Shown: one piece after another, positions 553 to 54,617 of the stretch | Layout of the letters: each line of letters opens with the position of its first letter | How positions within the stretch are numbered: the stretch's first letter is position 1 | Origin: Candidatus Eiseniibacteriota bacterium | GTDB lineage: Bacteria; Eisenbacteria; RBG-16-71-46; JABDJR01 | DNA: 64,000 bases | Assembly (NCBI GenBank): GCA_963762255.1 | Contig: CAVXKA010000001.1 | Coordinates: 64,001 to 128,000 of the forward strand | Reading direction: 5' to 3' | The notes under the pieces: model-generated | The model's database searches: none | Seen by the model: the letters and a program-made list of their open reading frames with translations, nothing else | Told to the model about the DNA's origin: nothing | Translations under genes and position numbers: made by a program

Positions 553-2067
553 ATGAAACCCCCGTTTCGCAAGGTCCTTGTCGCCAATCGCGGCGAGATC
601 GCGGTCCGGGTGATCCGTGCCCTTCACGAGCAGGGCGTCGGCGCGGTGGCGGTGTTCAGTGAAGCAGACCGGAACTCAGTCCACGTGCGTTTCGCGGACG
701 AGGCGTACTGCATCGGGCCGCCCCCGTCCAGCGAGTCCTATCTGAACCAGGCGGTCATCCTCGAGACCGCGCTCCGGTGCGGCGCCGAGGCCATCCATCC
801 GGGCTACGGCTTCCTCTCCGAAAACGCAGGGTTCTCGCGGGCGTGCGCCGAGGCGGGGTTGGTTTTCATCGGGCCCTCGGCAGAGTCCATCGCCGCGATG
901 GGCGACAAGCTCGAAGCGCGCGCCGTGGGGCGCGCGGCCGGCATCCCCATCGTCCCGGGAAGCCCGGGGCCGGTGGCGGACCTGAGCCAGGCGTTGCAGA
1001 GCGCGGAGACGATCGGCTACCCGATCATGCTCAAGGCCTCCGCGGGGGGCGGTGGCAAGGGCATGCGGGTGGTGAGGAGCGCCAAGGATCTGGCCACCGC
1101 GTTCGCTCTCACTCGAGGAGAGGCGGAGAGCGCGTTCGGCAACGGGAAGCTCTACATCGAGAAGTTCATCGAGAAGCCTCGCCACATCGAGATCCAGGTC
1201 TTCGGCGACGGCAAAGGGAACGTGGTGCACCTGGGCGAGCGCGAGTGCTCGCTTCAGCGTCGTCATCAGAAGGTCATCGAGGAAGCGCCCTCGGTGGTGA
1301 TCGACGCCGCGAAGCGCCGCGCCATGGGCGAGGCGGCGGTGAAGCTGGCGAAGGCGGTCAACTACCGCAACGCGGGCACGGTCGAGTTCATCTACGGCGC
1401 GGACGGTGGCTTTTACTTCCTGGAGATGAATACGCGGCTCCAGGTCGAGCATCCGGTCACCGAGTTGGTCTACGGCGTCGATCTCGCCCGCGAGCAAATC
1501 CGGGTGGCGGCAGGCCTGCCGCTCTCGTTCAAGCAGGACGAACTCGTGCCCAAGGGATGGGCGATCGAGTGCCGGATCTACGCCGAGGACCCCTACAACA
1601 ACTTCTTCCCTTCGCTGGGGCGCATCACCCGGCTGCGTCTGGCCTCCGGTCCGGGGGTGCGTAACGACTTCGGGATCCTCCAGGGATACGAAGTCTCCCG
1701 CTTCTACGATCCGATGCTGGGCAAGCTCGTCGTGCACGGGGCCGACCGCGAGGAGGCGCGCCGCCGGATGCTGCGCGCGCTGCGAGAGACGGTGGTCGAA
1801 GGGGTGCGCACGAACATCCCCTTTCATCGCTGGATGCTGGCCCGCGAGGAGTTCATCCGCGGCGATTTCGATACCAGCTTCATCGAGAGCATGTTCACTG
1901 GGGTCGAGCGGTCGACGGATCCTGCGGCCGAGCGCGCCGCCGTCATCGCCGCGGTGATCGCCACCCATGTCGAGGAGCAGCGGGTTCGCCCGCCGGCGGC
2001 GGGTGACAGCGGGATGGACCCGTGGCGGCTCATGGGTCGTCCCGGCGCCACGAACCGAGGCCGCTGA
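553..2067 (+). CDS. accC: Acetyl/propionyl-CoA carboxylase, biotin carboxylase subunit
   Basis: KVLVANRGEIAVR, HPGYGFLSEN, GGGGKGM, ERECSLQRRHQK and EMNTRLQVEHPVTE motifs. Confidence 0.95.
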   Translation: MKPPFRKVLVANRGEIAVRVIRALHEQGVGAVAVFSEADRNSVHVRFADEAYCIGPPPSSESYLNQAVILETALRCGAEAIHPGYGFLSENAGFSRACAEAGLVFIGPSAESIAAMGDKLEARAVGRAAGIPIVPGSPGPVADLSQALQSAETIGYPIMLKASAGGGGKGMRVVRSAKDLATAFALTRGEAESAFGNGKLYIEKFIEKPRHIEIQVFGDGKGNVVHLGERECSLQRRHQKVIEEAPSVVIDAAKRRAMGEAAVKLAKAVNYRNAGTVEFIYGADGGFYFLEMNTRLQVEHPVTELVYGVDLAREQIRVAAGLPLSFKQDELVPKGWAIECRIYAEDPYNNFFPSLGRITRLRLASGPGVRNDFGILQGYEVSRFYDPMLGKLVVHGADREEARRRMLRALRETVVEGVRTNIPFHRWMLAREEFIRGDFDTSFIESMFTGVERSTDPAAERAAVIAAVIATHVEEQRVRPPAAGDSGMDPWRLMGRPGATNRGR

Positions 2068-2587
2068 TGTCGACACGCTACATCGTCCACCTGGGTGACC
2101 GGCAGCAGACGGTATCCATCACCAAGGAAGGGAACGGCTACCGCGTGGAGATCGACGGCGAGGCGATCGCGGTCGACAGTCTCTCCGTGCCGGGGAGCCC
2201 CACGCGCTCGCTCCTCATCGAAGGGCGTTCCTTCGAGGCGGCCACCATGCCGTCGCGAGACGGTCTCGACGTATACGTTTCCGGCGACGTGTTTCACGTC
2301 CGGGTCACGGACGAATTGTGGGCGCGCGCCGAGAGCGCCGCGCACGGCGCCATCTCCGGCGAGGAGGTGGCCTCCCCCATGCCCGGCTCCGTGGTGCGCA
2401 TCTCGGTGGAGATGGGCCAGGTGGTGGAGGCGGGCCAGACCGTGGCGGTGGTCGAAGCCATGAAGATGCAGAACGATCTTGCCGCGGTGCGCGGAGGCAA
2501 GGTCGAGCAGATCCGTGTGAAGGCCGGCGATATCGTGGAGCAGGGAACGGTGCTGGTGGTGCTCGGGGCCGCAGCGGCGGAGGCGTG

Positions 2588-2588
<1 letters not shown>
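2067..2588 (+). CDS. Biotin carboxyl carrier protein (acyl-CoA carboxylase)
   Basis: SPMPG...EAMKM biotinylation motif; TGATG overlap with the upstream gene. Confidence 0.92.
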
Positions 2589-4342
<1,754 letters not shown>

Positions 4343-4367
4343 GAAGTTCGGCTCGCGGAGGATTCAG

Positions 4368-4571
4368 ATGCCGATCCAGAGATTCCGCAGTCATGACGAG
4401 GCCCGGCGGGCACTCTGGACGGACTCGTCCGATCCGGCGCTCCCCATGCGGATGAGACGGTTGTGGGCTTTCATGGATAGGCTGTGCCGCCGCCGGCCAC
4501 CACGGGGAGTGCAGAGGTTCAAATCCATCGAGGAGGCCAATCTCGAACGCGCGTCGTGGCCCTACGATTGA
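4368..4571 (+). CDS. Small hypothetical protein with duplicated (I/V)QRF(R/K)SxxEA motif; probable partner of the nucleotidyltransferase remnant
   Basis: MPIQRFRSHDEARRALW...PPRGVQRFKSIEEANLERASW; internal repeat; start abuts the NTase remnant. Confidence 0.55.
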   Translation: MPIQRFRSHDEARRALWTDSSDPALPMRMRRLWAFMDRLCRRRPPRGVQRFKSIEEANLERASWPYD

Positions 4572-4805
4572 GGCCCGAGCCGGTTTCGAGTGGATAGGAA
4601 TTGTGCATTGCCCCCCTGGACTCGCGGGGTTGCGCCTCGCGGTCAGATCGTTGAGATGCGCGCGAGCAGTCAGTCCGTGGTCAAGAACGAGGGGGCGCCA
4701 GCGTACGTCTCCCTCCCCACGTGTTCGGCGCGGTTTCCTCAAACGAACACGGGGGCCGACCCATCTCCGGGCCAGCCCCGTGTGCAATCCGTGACCGCCC
4801 GTCGG

Positions 4806-5789
4806 CTAGTAGAGCGTCTTGATCCGACCCCAAGTGGTCGTCTCCACGGAGACCGGTACTTCGCCGAACTTCTGGATGCGGTTGTTGTCGTGTCCGCGAC
4901 GTAGATGTTGCCCGCCGCGTCCGTCGCCACTCCGCGGGGACGACCGAACTGCCCGTTGCCGCTGCCGAATGACCCCCACTGGGTCAGGTACGCGCCCGTG
5001 CCGTGAACTTCTGGATGCGGTTGTTGCCCAAGTCCGCGACATAGACGTCACCCGCGGCGTCCGTCGCCACTCCGACGGGACTGGTTGAACTGCCCGTTGC
5101 CGCTGCCCGGCGAGCCCCACTGGGTGAGGTAGGCGCCCGTGCTCGTGAACTTCTGGATGCGCGAGTTGCCCGCGTCCGCGACGTAGACGTCGCCGGCTGC
5201 GTCCGTCGCCACTCCGTAAGGGTAGTTGAACTGCCCGTTGCCGCTGCCGAGCGAACCCCACTGGGTAAGGTAGCCGCCCGTACTCGTGAACTTCTGGATG
5301 CGGTTGTTGCCGGGATCCGCGACATAGACGTTGCCCGCGGCGTCCGTCGCCACTCCGCAGGGATAGATGAACTGCCCGCTGCCGGTGCCGTATGACCCCC
5401 ACTGGGTGAGGTAGCCGCCGGTACTCGTGAACTTCTGGATGCGGTTGTTGTCCTTGTCCGCAACGTAGACGTTGCCCGCGGCGTCCGTCGCCACCCCGTA
5501 GGGGTACGTTGAACTGCCCGTTGCCGGTGCCGAACGAGCCCCACTGGGTGAGGTAGGCGCCGGTGCTCGTGAACTTCTGGATGCGGTGGTTGGAGGTGTC
5601 CGCGACGTAGACGTTGCCCGCGGCGTCCGTCGCCACTCCGCAGGGATAGCTAAACTGCCCGTTGCCGCTGCCGGACGCCCCCCACTGGGTGAGGTAGGTC
5701 GGAGGTTGTGCTCCAACTGCCGCCGGCAGGATGGATGCGAAACCGAGAAGCGCGAGCGTGATCCCAAAGCGTTGGAGCCAGGAAGTCAT
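4806..5789 (-). CDS. Secreted NHL-repeat 6-bladed beta-propeller protein with C-terminal TWGRIKTLY tail (frameshifted)
   Basis: Signal peptide MTSWLQRFGITLALLGFASILPAAVGA; six ~47-aa repeats TQWGSxGxGNGQFxYPxGVATDAAGNVYVADxxNxRIQKF spread over three frames. Confidence 0.88.
   Translation of the reverse strand: MTSWLQRFGITLALLGFASILPAAVGAQPPTYLTQWGASGSGNGQFSYPCGVATDAAGNVYVADTSNHRIQKFTSTGAYLTQWGSFGTGNGQFNVPLRGGDGRRGQRLRCGQGQQPHPEVHEYRRLPHPVGVIRHRQRAVHLSLRSGDGRRGQRLCRGSRQQPHPEVHEYGRLPYPVGFARQRQRAVQLPLRSGDGRSRRRLRRGRGQLAHPEVHEHGRLPHPVGLAGQRQRAVQPVPSEWRRTPRVTSMSRTWATTASRSSRHGRVPDPVGVIRQRQRAVRSSPRSGDGRGGQHLRRGHDNNRIQKFGEVPVSVETTTWGRIKTLY
4865..5700. repeat. Six tandem ~141-bp repeats encoding NHL blades
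   Basis: The ccactgggt anchor recurs near 4976, 5117, 5258, 5399, 5541 and 5682; gaacttctggatgcg recurs with the same period. Confidence 0.9.
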
Positions 5790-6601: not shown

Positions 6602-7098
6602 CGTAGGGTCTCCTCTTGGTGCTTGGATCGGCCAGCGGACTCTGAAGCGGCGGACGACGCCTGACTCAGAAACGAAAGCGTGATCCCCAAGCGTCGTAGC
6701 CGGGAAGTCATGCGGTATCTCCTGGTTTGTCCGGCCTCGGGAAGGAAACATGAAACCGGTCAAGAACGATCAACACAGTAGCTTATATAAAGACTAACCA
6801 TGATATACATTATTCATAAGAGACTAGATCTGTACGCTTTGTCGGTCGCATCCAGACCACAGCGTAACCAGCACTATCACTGCACGTTACCCAAACCGGA
6901 GCGTCCAGCGAGAGGCGTCCGTTCCCCTTGACCCCATCGGGCTTCGGCTCCCCAATGTGGTCTGGAAGCTCTTCGGGGGCATCCGAACCCTGACGTAATA
7001 CGACTAGAATAGTTGCAGTCAACGTCCTCCACGGGGCAGCTCAGCGAGCGGAACCCCGTCTCTCGTGCAATCACCCAATGCGATCGGAGGGTCCGGCG

Positions 7099-7728
7099 AT
7101 GAGTTCTCTGCTACCGGCTTCCACCATCCAGCGCCTCGTTCGGCATCTCGGCGTAATGGCCCTCGTTCTTCTCGGCACGATTGCCCTGCCCGTTGCGTCT
7201 GGAGCCCAGCCATGTCCCCTCCCGCCGCAGTACACCAACAGCGCCAGCGTGATGGTAGGTGACGTTCGATTCATCCTCGCCACGGAGACCTACCTGTACG
7301 CCGTCGGCGATCCGGTCAGCATCATCATGACCGTGGAGAACACCGGCTCCGGTTCAGTGACCATTCCGAATCCCTCGATGATCTCGCCGCTTCAGGCGCT
7401 GTGGGTAGTTGCCGATACGTGCGCTACCTTTTACGTGGACGACTGCCCCTCCGTCTCGCCGTTCGCTTGGCCTCAGAGCCACTACTACTTCGGCGTGTCG
7501 ATCGTTCTCGCTCCCGGCGAATGCCGCACCTACACGCAGACCTGGAACGGTGTGCCATGGCAGGGCGGGACTACACAGCCGGGTCCTTATGCCGTTCTTG
7601 GCGGCATGAGCAGGGGGTCGACACTATTCATGCCCCAAGGCGGTGTCCGGCTTCCGATCCTGGTCGGCATACAGGGTGTTCCTACGGACCAGCGTACCTG
7701 GGGAGCGATCAAAGCGCTGTACCGGTAG
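7099..7728 (+). CDS. Secreted Ig-like/BsuPI-like domain protein with C-terminal TWGAIKALYR tail
   Basis: RBS ggagg; signal peptide; YAVGDPVSIIMTVENTG...LAPGECRTYTQTWNG...PGPY pattern; ends VPTDQRTWGAIKALYR. Confidence 0.8.
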   Translation: MSSLLPASTIQRLVRHLGVMALVLLGTIALPVASGAQPCPLPPQYTNSASVMVGDVRFILATETYLYAVGDPVSIIMTVENTGSGSVTIPNPSMISPLQALWVVADTCATFYVDDCPSVSPFAWPQSHYYFGVSIVLAPGECRTYTQTWNGVPWQGGTTQPGPYAVLGGMSRGSTLFMPQGGVRLPILVGIQGVPTDQRTWGAIKALYR

Positions 7729-7744
7729 CCAGTCTCGGCTGCAG

Positions 7745-7975
7745 TCAGTCCGATCCACCCAGGGTCCAGACCTCGCGTCCGCTCTTGAGATGCTTCTTAT
7801 GGATACTCACGTCGTCGGCCCCCTCCGCCTCGGCAATCGAGCGGAGTTCGGCGATGTCTTCGGGACTGCCGTCGCAGAATCCTATCGGACGCGGATTATT
7901 GGGCAGTTGGAGCTGGACTTTGAACTCGCCACGGTCCCATCGAGTCTGAGTCGCATTGTTGTAGGGGTAGATCAT
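7745..7975 (-). CDS. Small hypothetical protein (76 aa)
   Basis: Compact ORF with natural composition filling the gap between two genes (MIYPYNNATQTRWDRGEFKV...). Confidence 0.6.
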   Translation of the reverse strand: MIYPYNNATQTRWDRGEFKVQLQLPNNPRPIGFCDGSPEDIAELRSIAEAEGADDVSIHKKHLKSGREVWTLGGSD

Positions 7976-8007
7976 GATGTTGCAGAGTCTAAGCGACCCG
8001 CCCCGGC

Positions 8008-9179
8008 CTAGCTGGTGAATTCCACGCGCACTCCGCGCTTCGCGTGCCGGGCCAGCGTGGCGGCGTCCCAGTTCGTTAGGCGGATGCAGCCGTGGGACGC
8101 CGCGTAACCGATCGTCTGCGGGGTGGCCGTGCCGTGGATCCCGTAGTTCTCCTTCGAGAGCTGCATCCAGACCACGCCCACCGGTGAGTTGGGGCCGGCC
8201 GGCAAATTGGCTTCCGGCTCGTCGTCCGACACGTCGGCGAACAGTTTCGGCTGATAGTGGAACGTGGGATTCCGCGCGATGCCGATGATCCGGAGGTTAC
8301 CCTCGGGTGAGGGGTCGTACTTGGACCCCAGCGTCGACGGAAAGTGGAAGAGAATGCTTCCATCGCTATCGATGGCATGGGCATAGAAGCCCCGGCGCGA
8401 CACGATGATCCGGTCGATGACGCGGGTGGAATCGACCGCTCCCTCCGCCGTCCAACCCGGGTCGACATTGGGGACGAGCAGATCCTCCCCGCCGTCAGGC
8501 TCCCGGCGTGGATGCCGGAATTGAGTGAGGTCAGGAACTCCGGTGTCGTGTGGAATTTCTCGCCAATGGCCTCGAGAAGCGACTCGTAACACAGGCAGGA
8601 CTGCCTGGCCTTGTCGTACATGTCCTTGCCGAGCGGCACGAACTTCTGATCCGCGTCGGCGGCCGTCACCCGGTAGGGGACGACCGGCTCCCATTGCGCT
8701 GCCAACCGTTCGAGAAGCCGACTCGTCTCCGGATCGAGATCGCCCGTCGGCTTCAAGCCGTACGCGTCCTGGAACCAGTAGAGCGCCTTGGCCGTGTTCT
8801 TCCCCCCCGGCCGTCTATGACCCCCGGCGAAAAATGAAGCCGATCCAGCCACACCTGGAGCGTCAACGCCGGCAGACTGTCAGACGGCGCGCCGGTCCGC
8901 GGTGACGAGTCGACCGGTATCGCCCGGGCACGTCCCGCAGCCCGCTTCGTCAATTCGTACCGCGCCGCCGCCCGCCACGAGGTATCCCCGCGCGCCGCCT
9001 CGAGGGCAGCCGCATCGTATACATCCACATCGATCATCGGAGCGGACGCATCGATCGGCAATGTGTCGCCGGGAGCCGGCGTCAGAATTCGATGCCGCAT
9101 TCGAGCGGGTGTCCCGCCGTTCGCATCCGACGGCTCCGAGGACCACCAGCCCGAGCAAGAATATTGCATTCCGTCCCAT
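8008..9179 (-). CDS. L,D-transpeptidase (YkuD) lipoprotein with peptidoglycan-binding domain (frameshifted)
   Basis: Lipobox-like LGAVGC; LQVWLDRLHFSPGVIDG..GKNTAKALYWFQDAYGLKPTG PG-binding segment; catalytic YGIHGT...SHGCIRL. Confidence 0.88.
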
Positions 9180-45264: not shown

Positions 45265-48200
45265 GTGCCCGGTTCCCGGCTGCTCCTCCTCACGGCGATC
45301 CTGTCCGCGCTCGCGTCGCCCGGATTCGCTGCGATCGCGCCCGCGCTCGCGCTGGGGCTCGCGGCGACCCCACCTGCGGAGATCCTCCCCCCACCGGTCG
45401 TCTCGATGGGTCAGCCCCATCTCATTCAACTGCACTGGAGCCCGCTTGCCGGCTACAACTGGGATGCGGAGCAGCGAGTCAGCCGGCTCACGCTCTCGGT
45501 CGGGGGGGAGCCGCGCATCCCACAGTTCGGCCTCGTGCAGACGAGCTTCGCGGGGTTCGCGGGAGAGCGGGGAGGCGACTTCGACTGCGGGCTCGCCGCC
45601 TATCTCAAGATCCCGTGGGTGCACGCGGGGCTCGAGTTCAGCATCCCCGACGAGGATCTCATCGCCACCTTCGCCGCCGAGTTCGGACTGCGTCGCAGCG
45701 GACTTCTTCACCGCGGCGACGCCGTACGAATCGACTACCGTCCGTGGAAGCGGGAAGTCCTGGTGGGCCTCACCCTGGTCGAGCCACTGCGGCGCTACCG
45801 CCGCACACGCCCGCTCGCCATGCACGTGGCGCTCCCCGAGGGCGAGATCCCCCGCGCGGTGAAGCCGATCCGCAAGGAAGGTCTTCCCCGCGATCTCGAG
45901 GAGTCGCTCCAGCGGCTCGATCACCACATCGTCTGGATCGACCGCCTCCTCACCCCGCATTTCCAACCGGGCGGCGAATTCGCAGAGAGCGCCGAGTTCT
46001 ACCGCGCGCACGTGCGCGACGCCGGCCACTCCTTCGCCGACGAGGACGCCGGCTACCATGAGGAGTTGGAACGAGCGTTCACCATCGCCGCCGGCGCAGA
46101 CACCGCGGCGGGGCGGGAGCTGGCCCTGCGCGCGGAGACGATCCTCCTCGACCGCGTCCTCGTCCCCTTCAACCACTGCTTCGCCCAGATCAAGAAGCCG
46201 GCGAACATCGAGGGCTACGCGCGGCAAGGACTGCAGGAATTCGAGCGTGTTCTGATCGAGCGCTTCGGGGCTGAGCCGATTGGGAACGAGGGGCTCGACC
46301 CTGCCGAGCCCTCCGGCCGCCGCGAACTCTGCCGTGAAGTCTTCCGCCGCACGCTGGACGCGATCGACCGCGTGGCCCGGGCCACGCGCAAGCGGTGGGA
46401 CCAGAAATTCATCTTCATCTTCCCCGAATTCCGGCTGGTCTGGCTGCCGCTCAACTACGGCGTGCGGCCCGGCCAGGTCGACACCCAGGAGGAGTGGGAC
46501 GAGTTGGTCGAGCGCCTCACCGGCCGCGCCTTCACCGACTGCAACACGATCGAGTACCTGGTGAACGAGCAGTTCCACCTGCGTCTCAAGGCCATGGTGC
46601 GCGCCACCGAGACCTACCACGTCCTCCACATCCATGACGTGCGGGGGCTCTATGAGCGGAAACTCACCGACCGGATAGGCTGGGATCTCGTGATGGACGG
46701 CTATCTGCGGGCCTTCACGGACGCCGTGGGCGCCATCGATCGCGGCGAGCGCCGGCGTCTTCCCCAGTTCCTCCTCTTCCTTGACGAGAACTTCTACTCC
46801 GACAACCGCTCGCGCGGGATCGTCACCTTTCTGGAGAACCTGTACGCGCCCGAGGAACCCGAGTCGATAGACGAGCCTACGATGAAGACGGTGCTGCGCG
46901 CCCAACGTACGTTGCGGGCGGCCATCGAGGCGTCCCCCACCTTCGGCAAACTCTCCGAGCGCGAACTGCGGCGCCTCTTCAAAGTCCACGTCAACATCAC
47001 CCACCCGTTCGATCTCACCTTCGGTGGCGACGCGCCCCTGCGCGATCACCGCAAGGTCGCGTTCCGGGACGTGGTCGAGGACGATCCGAGCTCCGGTGAA
47101 GCGATCGCCACCGGCCAGGGCGTGGGTGAGCACTACAACGGCACCGGGTGGGACGACCGTAGCATCGTCGTTCGCGGGCCGGCGTTGGTGGCGTTCAAGA
47201 CCGGCGTGCGGGAGCTGTTCCTGAGCCAAGGATACGAAGAGAAGGACGTTCCCGAGTGCCTACGCGCACTGCCCGTTTCACCGGATTACGAGGAGCGGTG
47301 CGAGGCGCTGCGTGTGGCCGGATGGACGACCCCGGTCTCGGTGGTCATGAACCGGGTCGGTTACGGCGAGAAGATCGCCACCGTGCTCAAGGCCATGCAG
47401 TACAACCTGGCCCCGCCGGGCAGCACGATCCTCACCTTCGATTCCCTCTGGATCAGCGACTACTGGGCGGGAATGCTGACGGCGGCGGCCATGCGCGGGG
47501 TCGGCGTGTATGTCGTGGCGCCGACCGTGGGAAACGCCCCGAGCAGCGCCATCCCCACCATGGTCCTCTTGCGCGAGAACATGAGCCGTCTCTTCGAAGC
47601 GTCGCAGGTCTTCGCCGAGGAGATCGCCGCCGCGGACGGCTCGTTGAACGTCGGGCTCTACGCCACCAGGATCCCGGTGAGCGATCTGCGCGGACGCCTC
47701 GAGAGCGCGGTCGCTTGCTGGGAAGGCGATCCGCGGATGAAGGCGCGCTTCGGCCTGGACGCGGCCGTGCTGGACACGCTGCGCACACTCGCGGCGGCGT
47801 GGCCGCTCGAGCCGGCCCCCGAAGATACTCCGCGGGTGGTCGTCATTCCCATTCGCCAGGACCACAAACCGTTTCTCCACATGAAGACGCAGCTCCTGGC
47901 CGATGCGAGCGCCATGCGGGCGGTCCGGCGGCCGGAGTGGGCACACGTGATGGAGGAGCACCTTCGCATTCGCGCGCGCCAAGTCGCGGGATGTCTGGAT
48001 CCAGGGATCACGCCACGACTGCTTCCCGACAGCGGGCCGAACGCGGGTGTCGCCATGCTCCTGATCGGTTCTCAGAACCAGGACCGGCGCGGCATGATGA
48101 TGGACGGCGAGGTCACGGTGGCGATCTCGGGGCCGCACGCTCTCGTCGCGCTCCCCGACCTCATGCTCATTCTCGGCAACGCCACCTGGCCGCGGGACCG

Positions 48201-48285
48201 GGACGAGTTCACCCGGACGTTCCCCGAGGTCAAGGCTCCGGGGTTCCTCAAACGCGCCTTCCGCTACATCAAGGATCAGATCTGA
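45265..48285 (+). CDS. Large secreted phospholipase D-superfamily protein (1006 aa)
   Basis: Signal-peptide-like N-terminus; exact HxKxxxxD (HRKVAFRD); second HMK motif; C-terminal LIGSQNQDRRGMMMDGEV resembling the PLD GSxNxD..E segment. Confidence 0.7.
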   Translation: MPGSRLLLLTAILSALASPGFAAIAPALALGLAATPPAEILPPPVVSMGQPHLIQLHWSPLAGYNWDAEQRVSRLTLSVGGEPRIPQFGLVQTSFAGFAGERGGDFDCGLAAYLKIPWVHAGLEFSIPDEDLIATFAAEFGLRRSGLLHRGDAVRIDYRPWKREVLVGLTLVEPLRRYRRTRPLAMHVALPEGEIPRAVKPIRKEGLPRDLEESLQRLDHHIVWIDRLLTPHFQPGGEFAESAEFYRAHVRDAGHSFADEDAGYHEELERAFTIAAGADTAAGRELALRAETILLDRVLVPFNHCFAQIKKPANIEGYARQGLQEFERVLIERFGAEPIGNEGLDPAEPSGRRELCREVFRRTLDAIDRVARATRKRWDQKFIFIFPEFRLVWLPLNYGVRPGQVDTQEEWDELVERLTGRAFTDCNTIEYLVNEQFHLRLKAMVRATETYHVLHIHDVRGLYERKLTDRIGWDLVMDGYLRAFTDAVGAIDRGERRRLPQFLLFLDENFYSDNRSRGIVTFLENLYAPEEPESIDEPTMKTVLRAQRTLRAAIEASPTFGKLSERELRRLFKVHVNITHPFDLTFGGDAPLRDHRKVAFRDVVEDDPSSGEAIATGQGVGEHYNGTGWDDRSIVVRGPALVAFKTGVRELFLSQGYEEKDVPECLRALPVSPDYEERCEALRVAGWTTPVSVVMNRVGYGEKIATVLKAMQYNLAPPGSTILTFDSLWISDYWAGMLTAAAMRGVGVYVVAPTVGNAPSSAIPTMVLLRENMSRLFEASQVFAEEIAAADGSLNVGLYATRIPVSDLRGRLESAVACWEGDPRMKARFGLDAAVLDTLRTLAAAWPLEPAPEDTPRVVVIPIRQDHKPFLHMKTQLLADASAMRAVRRPEWAHVMEEHLRIRARQVAGCLDPGITPRLLPDSGPNAGVAMLLIGSQNQDRRGMMMDGEVTVAISGPHALVALPDLMLILGNATWPRDRDEFTRTFPEVKAPGFLKRAFRYIKDQI

Positions 48286-48320: not shown

Positions 48321-50024
48321 CTACAGGCTCGGGTTCAGGATGATCTTGCGCATCTCCTCGGCGCACACACGGCAGAACAGCCAGCTGAGGCTCCGCATGC
48401 AACAGCGGGCCTGACCGCGGAAGAAGTCCTTGCCGAGACAGTTTGTGTAGCGGTCTTCGTTGGTCCACTCCAGATTGTCGACGTTGGTGTCCTTCGGCAG
48501 GAACTGAGCGCCCCAGAAGAGACCCAGCCACCCGGGATCCTCGCTGGGGGAGAGGGTTTTCTTGTTGTATCGAATATCACAGTTGCTCGGCCCCTGGCAG
48601 TCGATGATGTGCGCGAACCCACCGGCGGACGTGCGTTCCTCCGTCGTGGTCAGGCCCTTCCACCAGACCTGATCCCTGTTTCCCCGGCTGACTTCGTTCG
48701 CGTGTTCGGTATAGCCGTCCCACGCGATCTTCCCCGTGTACTCCTCCACGATATCCCCGATGACGTGGGCCGACTCGTGGGCGGCGAGCTGTGCCAGCCA
48801 TACCTCGTGCAGGGGCACGAACGCGATCCGCTGTTCGTGGAAGGCGCTTCCCCCATATACGGGCGCGTTGACCAGCACGATGAAGAGCTGGATCTGGTCG
48901 GCGGGCGCGAAGTCCTCTGCCGCCCGGTAGACACGTCCGGGATCGGGGATACCGAGATACCCCGGATAAGACGACCCGCCTCCGCAGGGGGGCCAGCATC
49001 CCTCGACCTCGTAGTACGTCTGCTTGAGCGGCCAGGCGTAGGACGGCTCGCAGCTCCCCACGGCGCCGCATCGATAGACACCGGATGAGTGCGAGACGGC
49101 GCGGATGAGGTGGATGTTGATCTGATCCCGAAGTGCCTCGAACGGGGGCATCGACATGAGCTTATCGGCAACGTACCGAGCCCTCTGGTCGAACTTCTGC
49201 ATCTCACAGTGTTCGAACCCGTCCCCGGTGATGACGATGTTGAAGTGCGTGGCGGGATCCCCGCGATTCTGGATCGTCTCCTGGCTGTCGATCCAGCCGT
49301 TCGCGAGCAAAGGAGGATCATCCCAGCCCAGTTCGGGCAGATCCAGGAGGTGCTCGACGAAGAGAAGGAACGCCTTGAGAAGACCGAAGATCGGCAGCGG
49401 GAAGCCGGTCGGAGGAAATGGAGGAAGCGGCGGGAGCGGAGGCTTGCCCAGGCGGTAGAGCCCCAGCGCCTCGACGGCGAGCCGGACCCTTCCGAACTCG
49501 CCGTCCGTCACCAAGGCGTCCGCGGGCAGCGTGTGCTTCCCTGCGGGGCCGACCGCATCGACGCGCGTCCGCGCGAAGAGAAGGTAGGCGGCGTTCCGAG
49601 GAATGGGAAGGTGTAGCAGGCGATCGTCGAACCGAGGCGGCACCATGCCGCCACCCAGCGCTCCTGTCTTTTCGTCCACGATGACGTCTCCGAAGTAGCG
49701 GGGACGCGATGACCAGGCGTAGACCGCCAAAGGCCGCCGCCGGGCGTCATAGAGGGCGGCGATGACCTCTCCCGTCGAGGGCGGCACCTCGCCGAGGTTA
49801 TTGATCCCGAGCCTCATGGGGCGAAGCTCGCGTTGTGGCGGACGGATCGTGCCGCGGGCGAGCTTCAGGATCGGCGGCCGATTGCCGTCGAAACGCACGA
49901 GCATCGCCATGCTCTTGCCGGACCAAGCCGGTGGCTTCCTGCCGCGACGCGGCGGCCGGATTCGGGAGGGGGCCGACTTCGAGCGGGAACCCGTGGCACG
50001 AGTCGAACGCTTCCGGGCGGTCAT
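48321..50024 (-). CDS. M64 family (IgA peptidase-like) zinc metallopeptidase with basic N-terminal extension
   Basis: FNIVITGDGF, PFEALRDQINI, YGGS, zinc motif HESAH..EEY, C-terminal CCMRS..FCRVC; ATGA overlap with the radical SAM stop. Confidence 0.85.
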   Translation of the reverse strand: MTARKRSTRATGSRSKSAPSRIRPPRRGRKPPAWSGKSMAMLVRFDGNRPPILKLARGTIRPPQRELRPMRLGINNLGEVPPSTGEVIAALYDARRRPLAVYAWSSRPRYFGDVIVDEKTGALGGGMVPPRFDDRLLHLPIPRNAAYLLFARTRVDAVGPAGKHTLPADALVTDGEFGRVRLAVEALGLYRLGKPPLPPLPPFPPTGFPLPIFGLLKAFLLFVEHLLDLPELGWDDPPLLANGWIDSQETIQNRGDPATHFNIVITGDGFEHCEMQKFDQRARYVADKLMSMPPFEALRDQINIHLIRAVSHSSGVYRCGAVGSCEPSYAWPLKQTYYEVEGCWPPCGGGSSYPGYLGIPDPGRVYRAAEDFAPADQIQLFIVLVNAPVYGGSAFHEQRIAFVPLHEVWLAQLAAHESAHVIGDIVEEYTGKIAWDGYTEHANEVSRGNRDQVWWKGLTTTEERTSAGGFAHIIDCQGPSNCDIRYNKKTLSPSEDPGWLGLFWGAQFLPKDTNVDNLEWTNEDRYTNCLGKDFFRGQARCCMRSLSWLFCRVCAEEMRKIILNPSL

Positions 50025-51307
50025 GGCTCTACTCCTTCTCGTCGCGGGCGGCCCGCGCCCGCGACCTGTCGCTGAAATTCCTCGCGGGCCGCGAGCGAGA
50101 TGCGATTGTAGGCGCAGTGGAAATCTGGAATCCGATGAGGATCGCGGTTGCCGGAGATGTGGCCGATCGCGATCGGGCAGACCGAGCAGTCGTGCAGGTA
50201 ACGACACTCGGCGCAAAGACCATAGGAAGAGTGTTTCTTCTCGCGCTGGTTGAACATGTCGATGGCCACGACCGCGTCGGGAAGCGAGGCGAGACGAGCC
50301 ATGAACCCTGCGGAGCCGATATTCCCCAGCCGGAGCGGCCCCAGCCGGGGCTGCAGAAGATCCCCTGGAAATTCCTGAAGTGACTCGAGCCACGTGGGGC
50401 AGCCTGCGACTTCACCGTCGGGGGCCACGGTGATTTCCTCGCCGTGGCCCGCGCCGCACATGGCGCGCCCGTTCGAATCCTGAACCCGCCCAGACCCGTT
50501 GCTTGCGTGGTTGCCGTTCCGCAGGGCCCGCGCCTTCGAGGAAGACCGGAACCCAGCGAAGGGGATTTCTCCGCTCACGCCGTGGAGTCCAACGCTCAGG
50601 TCGACAATCCGCTCGAACTGAACCCCGAGCTTCCGGTACCCCACCGCCGACCAGTCCGGGTTCGCTGCGATGACCGGAGAGACCGTGATCCTGCGCACGC
50701 CCCTGCCGGTGAGGTAGTGGATCGCATCGGCCAGGCCGCCGACCGCACTTGGCGTGAGGGTGATGCCGACGGTGAGACTCCGACGCAGGAACGCCGGCTG
50801 ATCCCGCCTCAACTCCTCGAGCCGGCGATCGAGCACGGCGAACGTGCCTCGGCCGCGAAGGGTCTGCGCGGTCGGCGTTCCATCGAAGCTCAGGAGCACC
50901 TCGAATCCAGCGCCGACAAGATACGAGGCCACTTCGGGACGCAGGAGGGTGCCGTTGGTGATGAGTGCCGGTCGGAACGACTTCCCATTCGATCGCACGC
51001 GTCGCGCGTACTCGACCGCGCGTCGGATCAACGGCAGCTCGAGCAACGGTTCACCGCCGGAGAAGAGCAGCCGCACGTCGTCCGCCCGCGAGGCGGCGGC
51101 CAGGTCCACCGCCTCGCGCAACGTCTCCCAGCTCATGCGGCGCGCCGGTTTGCGGTTCTGATAGCAGTACGAGCACCGCAAGTTGCACCGGCCCGTGAGC
51201 ACCAGATGCACCTTTCGCAGGTCCCTAGCCGGCGCGTTTGAGGACGCGAAACGAGGGCGGCGCTGACCGGCGCGAATGCCGGCTTCCGCTCCGCCGCGGC
51301 CTCTCAT
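50021..51307 (-). CDS. Radical SAM / SPASM-domain peptide maturase-like enzyme
   Basis: CNLRCSYC, FSGGEPLL, ITNGTLL and SFDG; SPASM cysteines CGAG..GCP..CAECRYLHDCSVCP..FHC; RBS gaggag overlaps the upstream stop. Confidence 0.92.
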   Translation of the reverse strand: MRGRGGAEAGIRAGQRRPRFASSNAPARDLRKVHLVLTGRCNLRCSYCYQNRKPARRMSWETLREAVDLAAASRADDVRLLFSGGEPLLELPLIRRAVEYARRVRSNGKSFRPALITNGTLLRPEVASYLVGAGFEVLLSFDGTPTAQTLRGRGTFAVLDRRLEELRRDQPAFLRRSLTVGITLTPSAVGGLADAIHYLTGRGVRRITVSPVIAANPDWSAVGYRKLGVQFERIVDLSVGLHGVSGEIPFAGFRSSSKARALRNGNHASNGSGRVQDSNGRAMCGAGHGEEITVAPDGEVAGCPTWLESLQEFPGDLLQPRLGPLRLGNIGSAGFMARLASLPDAVVAIDMFNQREKKHSSYGLCAECRYLHDCSVCPIAIGHISGNRDPHRIPDFHCAYNRISLAAREEFQRQVAGAGRPRREGVEP

Positions 51308-51314
51308 GCGCTCC

Positions 51315-51656
51315 TCAGGCCTCGGGCTCAGGCGGCGGACAGCCGTAGTCCAATCCCGGTCCACCGTCAGCAGGAGGAGGCGGTGGTGGACAGCCGTAGT
51401 CGAGAACCTGGGGCACGCCCCCGGGACTCTGCGCCGTGCTCGCGGGCAGCACGATCCTCATGGTGGGGGGGAGGAGCAGCAGGATCTCGCGCAAGGAGCG
51501 GCACCAGTTCTCGATCCCATAGAGCGCGTCCGTGATCTGCTTGATCGTCACCACGCCGCCCAGGGGCTTCAGTCGCTTGACGGCCTTCTTCTTGGTCGCC
51601 TTCTTCTTTGCGGTCTTCTTCACCACCTTCTTCTTTGTCGTCTTCTTCTTCGCCAT
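51315..51656 (-). CDS. Putative RiPP precursor (113 aa): Lys-rich N-terminus, helical middle, two LDYGCPPP cores
   Basis: RBS gaggag; MAKKKTTKKKVVKKTAKKKATKKKAVKR...VLDYGCPPPPPPADGGPGLDYGCPPPEPEA; 14-bp DNA repeat ggacagccgtagtc at 51337 and 51388. Confidence 0.75.
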   Translation of the reverse strand: MAKKKTTKKKVVKKTAKKKATKKKAVKRLKPLGGVVTIKQITDALYGIENWCRSLREILLLLPPTMRIVLPASTAQSPGGVPQVLDYGCPPPPPPADGGPGLDYGCPPPEPEA

Positions 51657-51708
51657 CGTTCTCTCCTCTCGCCGCGATGCGTCGCGGCACGGTTGCGCCG
51701 AAGGGCGC

Positions 51709-54384
51709 CTATCGGCGCTCGCTCGTCGCGTCGAGCACCCAGATATCTCCGTCCTTGGCCTCCCGGCACCAGACGATGAGCCGTCCGTCCCGGGTGACAT
51801 CGAAGAAACCGGCGGGATCCCTTCGCCCAAAGGCGATCTCGGGCTCGATCGATCGGATGGATCCGTCCTCCAGGGAAATCCGCTTCAGCGTCAGAGCCGG
51901 AGAGCCCCAGGTGCCGCTCACGAGGAGGACGCGACCTCCGGGCTCCCAACGAACGCGACTCGCGTGTGCGCCCTTCGTCACGGCGCGTGGAACCGCGTCG
52001 GGGGCGGCGGCAACGATGTAGACGTCGGCCGCCCCCTCAATGCTCTTCGTGTACGCGATCTGCGTACCGTCCGGCGACCAGGAAGGGGCTTGCGCGGCCG
52101 GCCCTGAGGCGGCTATCTCAAACGGGGCTCCCCGCGGTTCACCGTCGGTTACGCGCTCGATCCAGAGGCGAGCGCTTCCACCCCGTTCGGAGGAATATGC
52201 GATCTGCGTCCCGTCCGGGGACCATGCGGGATGGACGTCGGGTCCGGGCTCGCGGGTGAACTGCCGAGGCAACCCGCCCCCGATGGGGAGCATCCAAATG
52301 TCGCGCTCGTCGTCGAGGATCCGGTAGTAGGCGATCCACTTGCCGTCGGGCGAAACGACCGGATGCGATGCGGAGCCGGGGTGTTCTGTGAGCCGGCGCG
52401 GGTCTCCCTGCGGGCGCCCGTCGAGAAGGGGCTGAAGCCACAGGTCGAGCTGCGGTCCCCAGCGGTCGGAAACGAAGACGAGTCCATCTCCTGCAGGCGT
52501 GAATGCCGGCATCCAGTCGTGACGAAAGCCCGGCAAGACCGTATCGCGCCCGCTCGGCACGTCGCGCACGACCATGCGGTACTCGACTTCCTCGGTGCAG
52601 TACGCGAGCCGCGTGCCGGCGCCGGAGAGGCTGGGATGGGTCTCCGACGCGTTGCCCAGCGTGACTCGCTCGGGCTTCCCTCCCGATGCGGCGACTTGCC
52701 ATATAGCAAGATTGCCGCTGCGATAGGACGAAAAGTAGATCGTGCGACCGTCGGTCGACCACACGGGCTCCTGATCCACGTCGCTGCCGGACAGGATCCT
52801 CCGCGGCCGGCCACCGCTCGACGGCACCTGCCACAGCCCGTCAGAGGATGCGTAGCAAATGTGCTTCCCGTCCGGGGACCACGCCGGCTGTCGCTGACCC
52901 CACAGGCCGAAGCCGGGCCCGGTGAGATCAACCGCCTCGGCCGCATCGTCCATCGGAGCCACGAAGACCCGAGTCGATCCCGAGGAGTCCTCGCGCGCGA
53001 ATGCCAACCGCTTGCCGTCCGGCGAAGCAGCGGGATCGCTCGCGTTTTCTGCAACGAGTACGGCGGGACCACCCATCTGCCCGGTCTTCCAAACCCCGTC
53101 CGAGCCGAGACGGTCGGAGACGAACAGCACGGCACTGCCGTCGGGGAGCCACGTCGGGCTGAAGTCGGAGGCTGGATCGTTGGTCAGAGCAATGGGACTC
53201 CCGCCGTTCACCCCGATCGCGTACACCTCCAGGTTGCCCGATATATCCGAGACGTAGGTCACTCTCCCGCCGTCCGGCGAGAGTGCGGGTTCGCTCTCCC
53301 AAGCCTCGGAGCTGGTGACCTGGATGGGCTGCGCGCGTGCGAATGGTGGCAAAGCGGTCCGGCCGGGAATGATGCGCAAGAGGGTGAACGCCGCGACGAC
53401 AAGCAGAATGGCTCCGGCGGCGGCGAGGCCGATGCGCCGCAGTTGGTGCGGCCTCGGCATCGGGAACTGAGGGTGCGTCTCCGAGTACTCCCTGAATTCA
53501 AGCTGCTTGTGAACCGCTCGCAGGTCGGTGAGCAGATCGCGCGCGCTCTGGTAGCGCTCGTCCGGCCGCTTGGCCAGACACTTGCGGATGATCCGCTCCA
53601 ACTCATCCGGAACCTCGTAGGTGTGCTTCCCGATCGGTTCGGGCTCGCGGTTGAGGATCTCCCCCACCAGCTCGCCCTGGCTCGTGGAGTGGAAGGCGGG
53701 CGCCCCCGTGCACATTTCGTAGAGCACCGCACCCAGGGCGAAGATGTCGGTGCGGGCATCCGTCGGGCGGCCCAGAACCTGCTCCGGCGCCATGTAGCGC
53801 GGCGTTCCCACGACCGCTCCAGTCGAGGTCAGGCCAACGCTCTCGGTGGAAGTACTCGCGTCGGCCTCCCCCGTCATCAACGTACGCGCGAGCCCGAAAT
53901 CGGTGAGAAGCGCGCGACCGCTGGCGTCGATCAGGATGTTCTTGGGATTCACGTCGCGATGGATGACGCCGTGCTCGTGGGCGGCGTGCAACGCCGACGC
54001 CAGCTCGACCGCATGCGCCAGCACGGTCGTGCAGAGGAGCTTCCCGCCTTGTGCGAGACGGTCGCGCAGGCTCACTCCCTCGACGAGTTGGAAGACGATC
54101 CAGGGAACGCCGTTCTCTTCGAAGGCCTCGAGGACCGCGACGATGTTCGGGTGGGAGACGCGAGAGGCCGCCTTTCCTTCGCGCAGGAACCGGCGGCGAA
54201 GCTCCATCGAGCCAAGCAACTCCGGGAGAGGGCGCTTGAGAGCAACGTCCCGGCTGAGGTTCAAATCACGCGCCTGAAACACGATGCCCATACCGCCACG
54301 GCCGATTTCGTTCACGATTTCGTAGTGGCGGACGCGCTCGCCTGGGACAGGGCTATGCGGGAGTGCTTCCCGGTCGTCGGGCAT
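51709..54384 (-). CDS. Membrane Ser/Thr protein kinase with extracytoplasmic TolB-like (PD40) beta-propellers
   Basis: IGRGGMG, VALK, HRDVNPKN, DFGLA and GTPRYMAPEQ; one TM helix; repeated PAWSPDG motifs. Confidence 0.93.
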   Translation of the reverse strand: MPDDREALPHSPVPGERVRHYEIVNEIGRGGMGIVFQARDLNLSRDVALKRPLPELLGSMELRRRFLREGKAASRVSHPNIVAVLEAFEENGVPWIVFQLVEGVSLRDRLAQGGKLLCTTVLAHAVELASALHAAHEHGVIHRDVNPKNILIDASGRALLTDFGLARTLMTGEADASTSTESVGLTSTGAVVGTPRYMAPEQVLGRPTDARTDIFALGAVLYEMCTGAPAFHSTSQGELVGEILNREPEPIGKHTYEVPDELERIIRKCLAKRPDERYQSARDLLTDLRAVHKQLEFREYSETHPQFPMPRPHQLRRIGLAAAGAILLVVAAFTLLRIIPGRTALPPFARAQPIQVTSSEAWESEPALSPDGGRVTYVSDISGNLEVYAIGVNGGSPIALTNDPASDFSPTWLPDGSAVLFVSDRLGSDGVWKTGQMGGPAVLVAENASDPAASPDGKRLAFAREDSSGSTRVFVAPMDDAAEAVDLTGPGFGLWGQRQPAWSPDGKHICYASSDGLWQVPSSGGRPRRILSGSDVDQEPVWSTDGRTIYFSSYRSGNLAIWQVAASGGKPERVTLGNASETHPSLSGAGTRLAYCTEEVEYRMVVRDVPSGRDTVLPGFRHDWMPAFTPAGDGLVFVSDRWGPQLDLWLQPLLDGRPQGDPRRLTEHPGSASHPVVSPDGKWIAYYRILDDERDIWMLPIGGGLPRQFTREPGPDVHPAWSPDGTQIAYSSERGGSARLWIERVTDGEPRGAPFEIAASGPAAQAPSWSPDGTQIAYTKSIEGAADVYIVAAAPDAVPRAVTKGAHASRVRWEPGGRVLLVSGTWGSPALTLKRISLEDGSIRSIEPEIAFGRRDPAGFFDVTRDGRLIVWCREAKDGDIWVLDATSERR

Positions 54385-54617
54385 GGGCGGTAGGCCTCGC
54401 TTGTCCTGGGCCGCTCGTGGGGGACTTGAATCGAATTATATGGCAAGAAATGTGAAAAGACAATTCAAGGGGGGGGCGGGAGGTCGGGCCGGGGGGCGGG
54501 GGCCGAGGGGCGGGTGCACGGGTCCGGGGGCGGAGGCGGGGGTCCGGGGGCGGGGGAGCCTGGGAGTTCGCCGGATCCGCTCCAAAGAGCAACGCGGCCT
54601 GCCGCGACCGGCCCGCC

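Follow-up and report, generated by a model that had tools for sequence, protein, structure and literature searches.

The window, a 64,000-nt stretch of contig CAVXKA010000001.1 from the Candidatus Eiseniibacteriota assembly GCA_963762255.1 (positions 64,001 to 128,000 of the forward strand), contains a cassette of four genes that lie on the minus strand in the order membrane kinase, small Cys-bearing protein of 113 aa, radical S-adenosylmethionine (SAM)/SPASM enzyme and M64 peptidase. The cassette is real and conserved. Its conserved core is formed by the kinase, the small Cys protein and the radical SAM enzyme, and the M64 peptidase is an accessory of the subtype whose small protein carries a Cys-Pro-Pro-Pro (CPPP) motif. 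We propose, with moderate confidence, that the four genes form an operon whose small protein is made on the ribosome and would be modified post-translationally by the steps described below. The cassette is apparently undescribed.

A conserved core of kinase, small Cys protein and radical SAM enzyme

Homologs of the radical SAM enzyme form 257 clusters at E ≤ 1e-10, which are typically 40–48% identical to it. They occur in 12 of 206 genomes of the window's phylum (E ≤ 1e-40, its own genome included). In a second phylum (that of locus L004, labelled Acidobacteriota), 401 genomes were sampled and 17 contain the enzyme (E ≤ 1e-50). The system is moderately common. A metagenome scan with the alignment of the enzyme returned 80 loci, 18 of which are clear family members, while a contig scan with the single enzyme returned L003 and L004 as the only family loci and L005 as an unrelated radical SAM gene. 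All loci were compared with the window proteins by tblastn, and 50 distinct loci were pooled. The kinase was considered testable where at least 1 kb is available upstream of the radical SAM gene (47 loci) and the M64 gene where at least 1.5 kb is available downstream (38 loci). Kinase, small open reading frame (ORF) and radical SAM gene are adjacent in 12/12 genome loci, 15/18 metagenome family loci and 17/19 loci of the second phylum. Of the 47 testable loci from the two phyla in the pooled set, 44 have a full-length kinase ortholog directly 5´ of the radical SAM gene and in the same orientation. The exceptions are L038, which has a 370-aa PD40 protein without a kinase domain, L132, which has a 1325-aa kinase-nSTAND1-WD40 protein instead, and L142, in which the radical SAM gene contains in-frame stops. 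As a control, 62 more distant radical SAM loci from the metagenome scan were inspected, and a co-oriented full-length kinase gene is adjacent in none of them; in L046 a kinase domain is encoded on the opposite strand, and L055 shows weak PD40 matches. The other flanking genes vary, and ffh and a 1006-aa neighbor recur only in L027, which belongs to the same genus. The idea in the initial annotation of a recurrent gene set with a short ORF upstream of the radical SAM gene is supported by these loci.

The genes are tightly coupled. The kinase stop codon is separated by 52 nt from the small ORF, whose ATG is preceded by GGAG; the TGA of the small ORF is separated from the radical SAM ATG (51307) by the 7 nt GGAGCGC; and the M64 ATG at 50024 overlaps the radical SAM stop codon as ATGA. 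The layout agrees with the initial annotation, which had described four co-oriented genes with these gaps, and Pfam supports three of its four gene names. The features are listed below in window coordinates.

51709-54384, minus strand: Hanks-type Ser/Thr kinase with a transmembrane helix and PD40/TolB-like propellers, 891 aa (Pfam, motifs, synteny)
51315-51656 (stop codon included), minus strand: small protein, proposed substrate or precursor, 113 aa (sequence, profile, AlphaFold)
51564-51656, minus strand: Lys-rich basic tail, residues 1-31 of the small protein (direct sequence reading)
51474-51545, minus strand: conserved amphipathic helix, residues 38-61, presumed recognition element (AlphaFold and alignments)
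51381-51404, minus strand: LDYGCPPP copy 1, residues 85-92 (sequence)
51330-51353, minus strand: LDYGCPPP copy 2, residues 102-109, with EPEA and the stop codon after it; Cys-x3-Glu (sequence)
50021-51307, minus strand: radical SAM/SPASM enzyme, 428 aa, CxxxCxxC at residues 41-48 (Pfam, NCBIfam, fold)
48321-50024, minus strand: M64-family zinc metallopeptidase, 567 aa, HESAH...EEY, CPPP-subtype accessory (Pfam, motif)
54435-54463, minus strand: sigma-70-like promoter match TTGTCT-17-TATAAT, 5´ of the kinase gene (consensus match)

The promoter match is located ~50 nt 5´ of the kinase start, beyond a terminator-like hairpin behind ffh. The scan returned 1 site against 0.7 expected from shuffles, so this consensus match is weak evidence.

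No partner of the radical SAM enzyme is as constant as the kinase. In the window protein, Pfam reports Pkinase with 160.7 bits (kinase domain, residues ~20–296) and PD40 with 207 bits in 8 stretches, and the HRD and DFG motifs of a Hanks-type Ser/Thr kinase are present. A transmembrane helix is located at about residues 318–340, with a hydrophobic 19-mer at residue 318; this hydrophobic segment between the domains indicates a topology with the kinase inside and the propellers outside. HRD and DFG are retained in 30 of the 32 cassette kinases with a complete N-terminus, and 29 of the 32 contain a strongly hydrophobic 19-mer at residues about 305–343. Cassette kinases from other loci align over residues about 14–888 with 35–72% identity, while other kinases from the window's own genome match the kinase domain alone, at no more than 223 bits, which indicates that the cassette kinases are an orthologous group. 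The kinase had been recognized in the initial annotation, and this identity stands; the transmembrane helix and the large PD40 propeller region went unmentioned, and the kinase was under-weighted.

The small protein family and the enzymes beside it

The small protein of the window contains one confidently predicted helix (residues 38–61; predicted local distance difference test score, pLDDT, about 95), and the remainder of its AlphaFold model is disordered. The helix block is the most conserved part of the small-protein alignments A1 and A3. Sequence and model agree with the initial annotation on a Lys-rich N-terminus, a helical middle and two LDYGCPPP copies in the 113-aa ORF. The two copies differ at 5 of 24 nucleotides, all synonymous; LDYGCPPP is unchanged in 4/4 close homologs; and the GC content at third codon positions (GC3) is 0.84, compared with 0.79–0.82 in the neighboring genes. 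These three observations together indicate a real coding sequence rather than a chance frame. No Pfam or NCBIfam model matches the small protein, the ESM Atlas returned no usable match, and a word-based homolog search with it retrieved 4 close relatives only.

Profile A3, built from 13 members, was searched against 1.84 billion proteins; 157 representative clusters match it at E ≤ 0.001, 26 of them at E ≤ 1e-10. The family counts are based on 150 listed of these 157 matches, of which 148 are small (59–174 aa). Two long helical-repeat proteins, P0144 (1346 aa) and P0264 (762 aa), match A3 in 10 and 6 stretches; they were treated as spurious similarity of the helix to a repeat unit and were left out of the counts. 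Among the 148 small matches listed, 147 contain a Cys and 119 a CPP-like motif; CPPP is found in 91, a share that is inflated because CPPP was included when the profile was built. CPPP[ED] is found in 42 and is placed at the exact C-terminal end in 14, and a strongly basic tract (at least 7 K/R in 12 residues) is also found in 42, at either end of the protein. The Cys-Pro motif follows the helix in 84 proteins and precedes it in 9 among the matches listed. The circularly permuted members with the Cys-Pro motif N-terminal to the helix are L022:4073-4267 (minus strand), P0182, P0185, P0218, P0221, P0224, P0244, P0248 and P0252. The family also includes proteins with two helices and two cores.

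The approximate consensus around the Cys is P-P-x-R-x-x-G-C-P-P-P-E, and the hypervariable core is often Gly-Cys-Pro-Pro-Pro-Glu at the extreme C-terminus. Of 111 CPPP motifs, 46 have E or D at +4 and 65 have neither. At position -2 to the Cys, the commonest residues over 132 CPP motifs are G (37), D (15) and K (14). In the window, core copy 1 reads CPPPPPPAD and copy 2 CPPPE. When profile A3 was run against the 6,484 six-frame ORFs (35 aa or longer) of the 50 loci, its matches were located solely in the gap between kinase and radical SAM gene, including at six loci absent from the building of the profile. Each locus contains one to three short ORFs in this gap, and a short Cys-bearing ORF is present directly 5´ of every homologous radical SAM gene inspected.

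The small ORFs without CPPP were picked out by visual inspection of stop-to-stop frames, in DNA that is GC-rich. They comprise a GGAxC-repeat subtype (L036, L041), a subtype with G-x-x-C followed by W (L023, L026), and a long helical subtype that ends in ...Y-T/A-G-C or ...Y-L-N/D-C (L134, L136-L138, L140, L141). In these sequences, the only universal core feature is a Cys, usually after one conserved helix. The initial annotation had taken DYGC for the substrate motif, with its conservation as a touchstone of the proposal; DYGC proved not to be conserved, being confined to the window's close homologs and L004. The expected motif-bearing neighbor beside homologous radical SAM genes survives in the form of Cys or CPPP. 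At L023:9763-10844 (minus strand), L026:2256-2906 (plus strand), L032:1986-2551 (plus strand) and L135 (two ORFs between kinase and radical SAM gene), one radical SAM gene is preceded by two or three diverged small Cys ORFs in tandem. This arrangement looks like that of multi-precursor clusters for RiPPs, peptides that are made on the ribosome and then undergo post-translational modification.

The radical SAM enzyme matches the Pfam Radical_SAM model with 65 bits, and the Pfam SPASM model was not reported for it at E ≤ 0.01. Its membership in the SPASM group is established by the CxxxCxxC motif, a C-terminal seven-Cys motif of the kind that serves two auxiliary clusters, and the fold. Over 32 sequences, C41, C45 and C48 are invariant or nearly so, as are C284, C303, C365, C368, C374, C377 and C398. 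The C-terminal pattern of the 32 homologs is C-x13-G-x4-C, then CxxCx5CxxC, then a final C; the final spacing of SPASM domains is CxxxC, while that of the window enzyme is CxxC. The AlphaFold model (pLDDT 84.9) aligns over its full length with CteB, anSMEcpe, ChlB and TigE (about 400 columns). In a profile search of the PDB, CteB is first (E 9.8e-32) and an anaerobic sulfatase-maturating enzyme (anSME) second (E 5.2e-22), and in the fold search CteB (E 3.7e-17, template modeling score 0.65 over about 400 columns) is followed by anSMEcpe (E 9e-15).

PapB is the best NCBIfam model for 32/32 homologs, followed by CcpM, QhpD, nif11-type, HxsB and SCIFF. The window enzyme scores 117.9 bits with the PapB model NF047865, whose cut-off is 340, and the best homolog E-value is 9.7e-46. 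It falls below the cut-offs of the SCIFF maturase model TIGR03974 (64.1 bits versus 425), the anSME model TIGR03942 (56.8 versus 349) and the cyclophane model YhhB NF041707 (42.2 versus 445). The source annotations of the cassette proteins read 'hypothetical protein' or carry the generic COG name AslB. Prediction of a complex between the radical SAM enzyme and the small protein gave no answer (score 0.00), which counts neither for nor against binding.

A quick maximum-likelihood tree was built from 48 of 49 radical SAM enzymes, with L044 dropped as too short and L047 not given. The CPPP loci cluster on this tree, which requires 4 label changes, a number as low as which was reached in 0 of 500 shuffles, and the enzymes whose precursors end in a C-terminal Cys constitute a basal clade with 99% support. 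Both features suggest that enzyme and core type diversify together.

The M64 peptidase of the window matches Peptidase_M64 (PF09471) with 66.8 bits against a cut-off of 26 and carries HESAH...EEY, which places it in the family. An M64 gene lies 3´ of the radical SAM gene in 9 of the 38 testable loci (the window, L004, L018, L020, L022, L045, L129, L130 and L131), which are exactly the 9 testable CPPP loci; none of the 29 others has one. L018 comes from an unpublished genome (G072), and without it the count is 8/8. HExxH...EEY is retained in 9/9 cassette M64 genes. In L027, the window's sister (radical SAM enzymes 63% identical), LEWGCFHSEPP replaces CPPP and M64 is absent; the radical SAM gene there abuts a homolog of the 1006-aa gene. 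In the M64-less loci, the genes after the radical SAM gene bear no relation to one another; ten downstream ORFs were scanned and no conserved partner was found: they match FlgD-Ig, histidine kinase, enoyl-CoA hydratase, C25 peptidase, PIG-L, ThrRS and VWA, and three have no Pfam family. The processing role that the initial annotation gave to M64 fits its co-occurrence with CPPP; with its presence in 9/38 loci, M64 is not a core component.

Proposed modification and alternative explanations

In the proposed pathway, the conserved amphipathic helix of the small protein would be the docking element, and the radical SAM/SPASM enzyme would act on the conserved Cys in the disordered, Pro-flanked segment. 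The Cys is the probable target because it co-occurs with the enzyme and because enzyme and core diversify together. The most likely chemistry, which is also the least certain step, would be a thioether in which the Cys sulfur is bonded to a carbon of a residue on the C-terminal side of the Cys. The link made by PapB runs from Cys to a downstream Asp or Glu, at the carbon alpha to the carboxylate, or to the C-terminal residue (PMC12373016). CPPPE and CPPPD, often at the C-terminus, offer the geometry used by PapB, which favors a PapB-like thioether; in the window, Cys-Pro-Pro-Pro-Glu would provide the Cys-x3-acid spacing of PapB substrates. In the CPPP subtype, M64 would then cut in or next to the proline run and trim or release the modified core. 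This step is suggested by the strict co-occurrence and by the specificity of the M64 type enzyme, a post-proline endopeptidase that cuts Pro|Val (PMC9147577). The membrane kinase with its periplasmic PD40 propellers would be a co-inherited partner that most probably couples the system to a signal from the envelope or from outside the cell, or responds to the product of the system. Phosphorylation of the small protein by the kinase is not claimed, since alignment A3 contains no invariant Ser or Thr column.

We also considered a more specific arrangement, suggested by analogy with plant pairs of modified peptide and receptor kinase, in which the Pro-rich Cys peptide, cross-linked by the radical SAM enzyme and in the CPPP subtype also trimmed by M64, would be the cognate ligand of the PD40 β-propeller ectodomain of the co-encoded kinase. 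Ligand and receptor would then co-diversify as the plant pairs do. We regard this arrangement as quite unlikely; if it were true, the cassette would define a new RiPP class by its Cys-Pro-Pro-Pro core and bacteria would have a further, new way of signaling with peptides.

Several observations weigh against the modification of the small protein through a PapB-like thioether. Only 74 of 132 CPP motifs have an acidic residue at +3 to +6, and the precursors of the basal clade end in Cys, with nothing C-terminal to it, so that a PapB-type acceptor cannot hold family-wide; judged from these cores, an acceptor rule cannot be uniform across the family. Because the anSME fold is almost as close as that of CteB, a thioether is not distinguished from Cys oxidation, and in comparisons of 32 homologs with NCBIfam and of the family with Pfam the clade reaches no curated family cut-off. 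The window enzyme has no domain of the size of a RiPP recognition element (RRE); its CxxxCxxC motif starts at residue 41, which leaves no room for an N-terminal RRE. The small protein lacks a signal peptide and the cassette lacks an exporter. Many of the small ORFs without CPPP are by-eye picks from GC-rich stop-to-stop frames, and the CPPP–M64 link, being phylogenetically clustered, represents few independent events.

The same substrate and site could undergo another chemistry, namely oxidation of the Cys to formylglycine as by anSME, or a different single-residue change such as epimerization, with no cross-link. The fold of anSMEcpe is nearly as close as that of CteB (about 410 columns) and anSME ranks second by sequence profile; moreover, the Cys is the sole universal core residue, the acceptor position is not conserved and some precursors end in Cys, a pattern that a single-residue modification fits better than a fixed macrocycle. 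CPPPR, a match to the CxPxR motif of sulfatases, accounts for 11 of 111 CPPP motifs. However, the +4 residue is mostly E, D, P or L rather than R, the NCBIfam anSME score (56.8 bits versus 349) is well below those of PapB, CcpM and QhpD, and neither the cassette genes nor the scanned downstream ORFs include a sulfatase. Such a chemistry, though a serious rival, is unlikely on the whole. A role of the small protein in kinase signaling, as a cytoplasmic adaptor, substrate or DNA-binding regulator with a basic tail, with the radical SAM enzyme acting only as a switch or elsewhere, would explain why the kinase is the most constant neighbor (44/47 loci), why L132 keeps kinase and propeller even without a transmembrane helix, why 42/148 of the small proteins listed carry basic tracts, and why the cassette has no exporter and dispenses with M64 in 29/38 loci. 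Yet hypervariable cores, which are repeated and in some proteins circularly permuted, stand beside a conserved helix, and the small genes occur as tandem paralogs, which argues for a RiPP-type substrate rather than a regulator; the radical SAM tree also follows core type, and the small-protein alignment shows no Ser/Thr invariance. A signaling component of this kind is improbable.

The initial annotation had offered excision of Tyr at YG, as by a splicease, or formation of an aromatic cyclophane on the Tyr of DYGC. An aromatic residue does precede the Cys by 2–4 positions in the window and L004 (DYGC), L027 (EWGC), and L020 and L047 (YYxNC), as well as in the ends YTGC, YAGC and YYLNC of the basal clade. 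Across the 132 CPP motifs, however, Tyr is outside the seven commonest residues listed at -1, -2 and -3 and accounts for 9/132 at -4, and this rarity weakens both options. In addition, the cyclophane model YhhB gave 42.2 bits versus 445, no aromatic residue is conserved near the Cys, and no splicease model is among the best 25 of 71 families. Both options are now very improbable. That the adjacency is non-functional, with the small ORF a spurious open frame, is scarcely credible: high-GC DNA yields many long open frames and several candidates without CPPP were picked by eye, but the GC3 of 0.84 and the synonymous-only differences between the motif copies speak against it, as do the 157 profile matches in independently made gene calls, the restriction of matches to the expected position among 6,484 ORFs, and the synteny across two phyla in which other flanking genes vary.

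Relation to known systems and variant loci

PapB/PapA, the freyrasin ranthipeptide system, resembles the cassette in having a radical SAM/SPASM enzyme without a long N-terminal extension, and PapB is the best NCBIfam model for the 32 homologs. PapB substrates have a Cys with Asp or Glu at +4, or with the C-terminal residue, as acceptor (PMC12373016), and copy 2 of the window, CPPPE, has this form. In contrast to PapB, the window enzyme is far below the cut-off, three prolines intervene between Cys and acid, and 65/111 CPPP motifs have no E or D at +4. Unlike PapA, the precursor contains a conserved helix, often together with a poly-Lys tail, and it is accompanied by an obligatory receptor-type kinase and an accessory M64.

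CteB, the thioether-forming SCIFF maturase (5wgg, 5why), is the closest solved structure by profile and fold, and it modifies Cys. It matches the window enzyme from residue 93 on, which indicates an N-terminal domain that the window enzyme lacks; the precursor is not the six-Cys SCIFF peptide, and the cassette does not belong to the SCIFF group. The anSMEcpe structures (4k36-4k39) share the full-length SPASM fold with the window enzyme. The anSME substrate motif has a Cys followed by Pro. The substrate of the cassette is not a sulfatase, however, and TIGR03942 is below its cut-off.

In Methanococcus voltae, the SPASM enzyme CrpC places ranthionine links on the adjacent Cys-bearing protein CrpA, which, as in the cassette, is larger than a peptide (PMC13692751). 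CrpA is Cys-rich, whereas the proteins described here have one to three Cys in Pro-rich motifs and come from different taxa, and CrpC has a predicted RRE that the window enzyme lacks. HPr-kinase-like and PqqD-type RRE domains, which are features of SynChlorMet-type cassettes, are not found by Pfam or NCBIfam in the four window genes. In contrast to these cassettes, the kinase is a Hanks-type membrane receptor with PD40 instead of an HPrK/PEPCK fold, and the precursors do not end in Ser.

The class III and IV lanthipeptide synthetases likewise tie a Ser/Thr-kinase-fold domain to a RiPP-like pathway, and the leaders of these lanthipeptides are helical. The cassette has no lyase or cyclase domain, however, and its kinase is a separate transmembrane receptor-type gene. 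The window kinase scores 88.7 bits versus 650 for LanL and 32.2 versus 575 for LanKC, with only the kinase domain matching, and is a member of neither. The window M64 has the Pfam M64 domain and HExxH in common with the IgA peptidase of Clostridium/Thomasclavelia ramosum, a family M64 enzyme, and differs in having no marked N-terminal hydrophobic segment and in lying in a proposed peptide-modification operon. Against solved M64 structures the match of the window M64 is weak (3p1v, E 3.4e-5).

The combination of a radical SAM/SPASM enzyme with a small precursor is a known route to modified peptides. No description of the cassette was found in Pfam, NCBIfam or full-text literature searches. In the main text of a radical SAM compendium (PMC10288494), 'kinase', 'Acidobacteri', 'M64' and 'proline-rich' occur 0 times; its supplements, which are separate from that text, might list the clade. 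The initial annotation had recognized no described family, and the two databases and the literature gave the same answer. Three features were found described nowhere: the invariant partnership of a radical SAM/SPASM-peptide system with a Hanks-type kinase that has a transmembrane helix and TolB-like propellers; precursors composed of one conserved helix and a hypervariable Cys core, frequently with a poly-Lys tail; and a post-proline-type M64 metallopeptidase that accompanies CPPP cores solely. With candidates for substrate, enzyme and protease all defined, the cassette offers a directly testable new peptide-modification system. If the thioether spans the triproline, a compact and rigid type of macrocycle would be added to the enzymatic toolbox, and should the kinase sense the product, this would be peptide signaling of a new kind in bacteria.

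Several loci deviate from the common layout. In the Acidobacteriota-phylum locus L132 (2-3979, plus strand), the 1325-aa kinase-nSTAND1 NTPase-WD40 protein replaces the gene for the transmembrane kinase with PD40, keeping the kinase and a β-propeller in a cytoplasmic STAND architecture without a transmembrane helix. In L130 (G470:C4), the kinase match (about 1223-3821) falls into two frames, and in the small-ORF region (3873-4522) the CPPP ORF is divided between two overlapping frames, which may reflect a frameshift or an assembly error. L142/L123 (G225:C17), with one TGA and one TAG in frame in the radical SAM gene and no upstream kinase, is probably a decaying copy of the cassette.

Downstream of the radical SAM gene, L019 contains two paralogous ORFs of 575 and 571 aa (6629-8356 and 4046-5761, both minus strand), one of which was scanned and has no Pfam match. 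Next to the cassette of the window, a 1006-aa ORF at 45265-48285 (plus strand) is convergent with the M64 gene and has no Pfam or NCBIfam match at E ≤ 0.01. A homolog with 68% identity adjoins the cassette in the same-genus locus L027, and no homolog was found beside the cassette in any other locus. Three genomes of the second phylum (G357, G371 and G545) each contain two copies of the cassette radical SAM gene, and the duplicate-copy loci pair within one genome as L141 with L146, L143 with L147, and L139 with L145; each copy has its own kinase.

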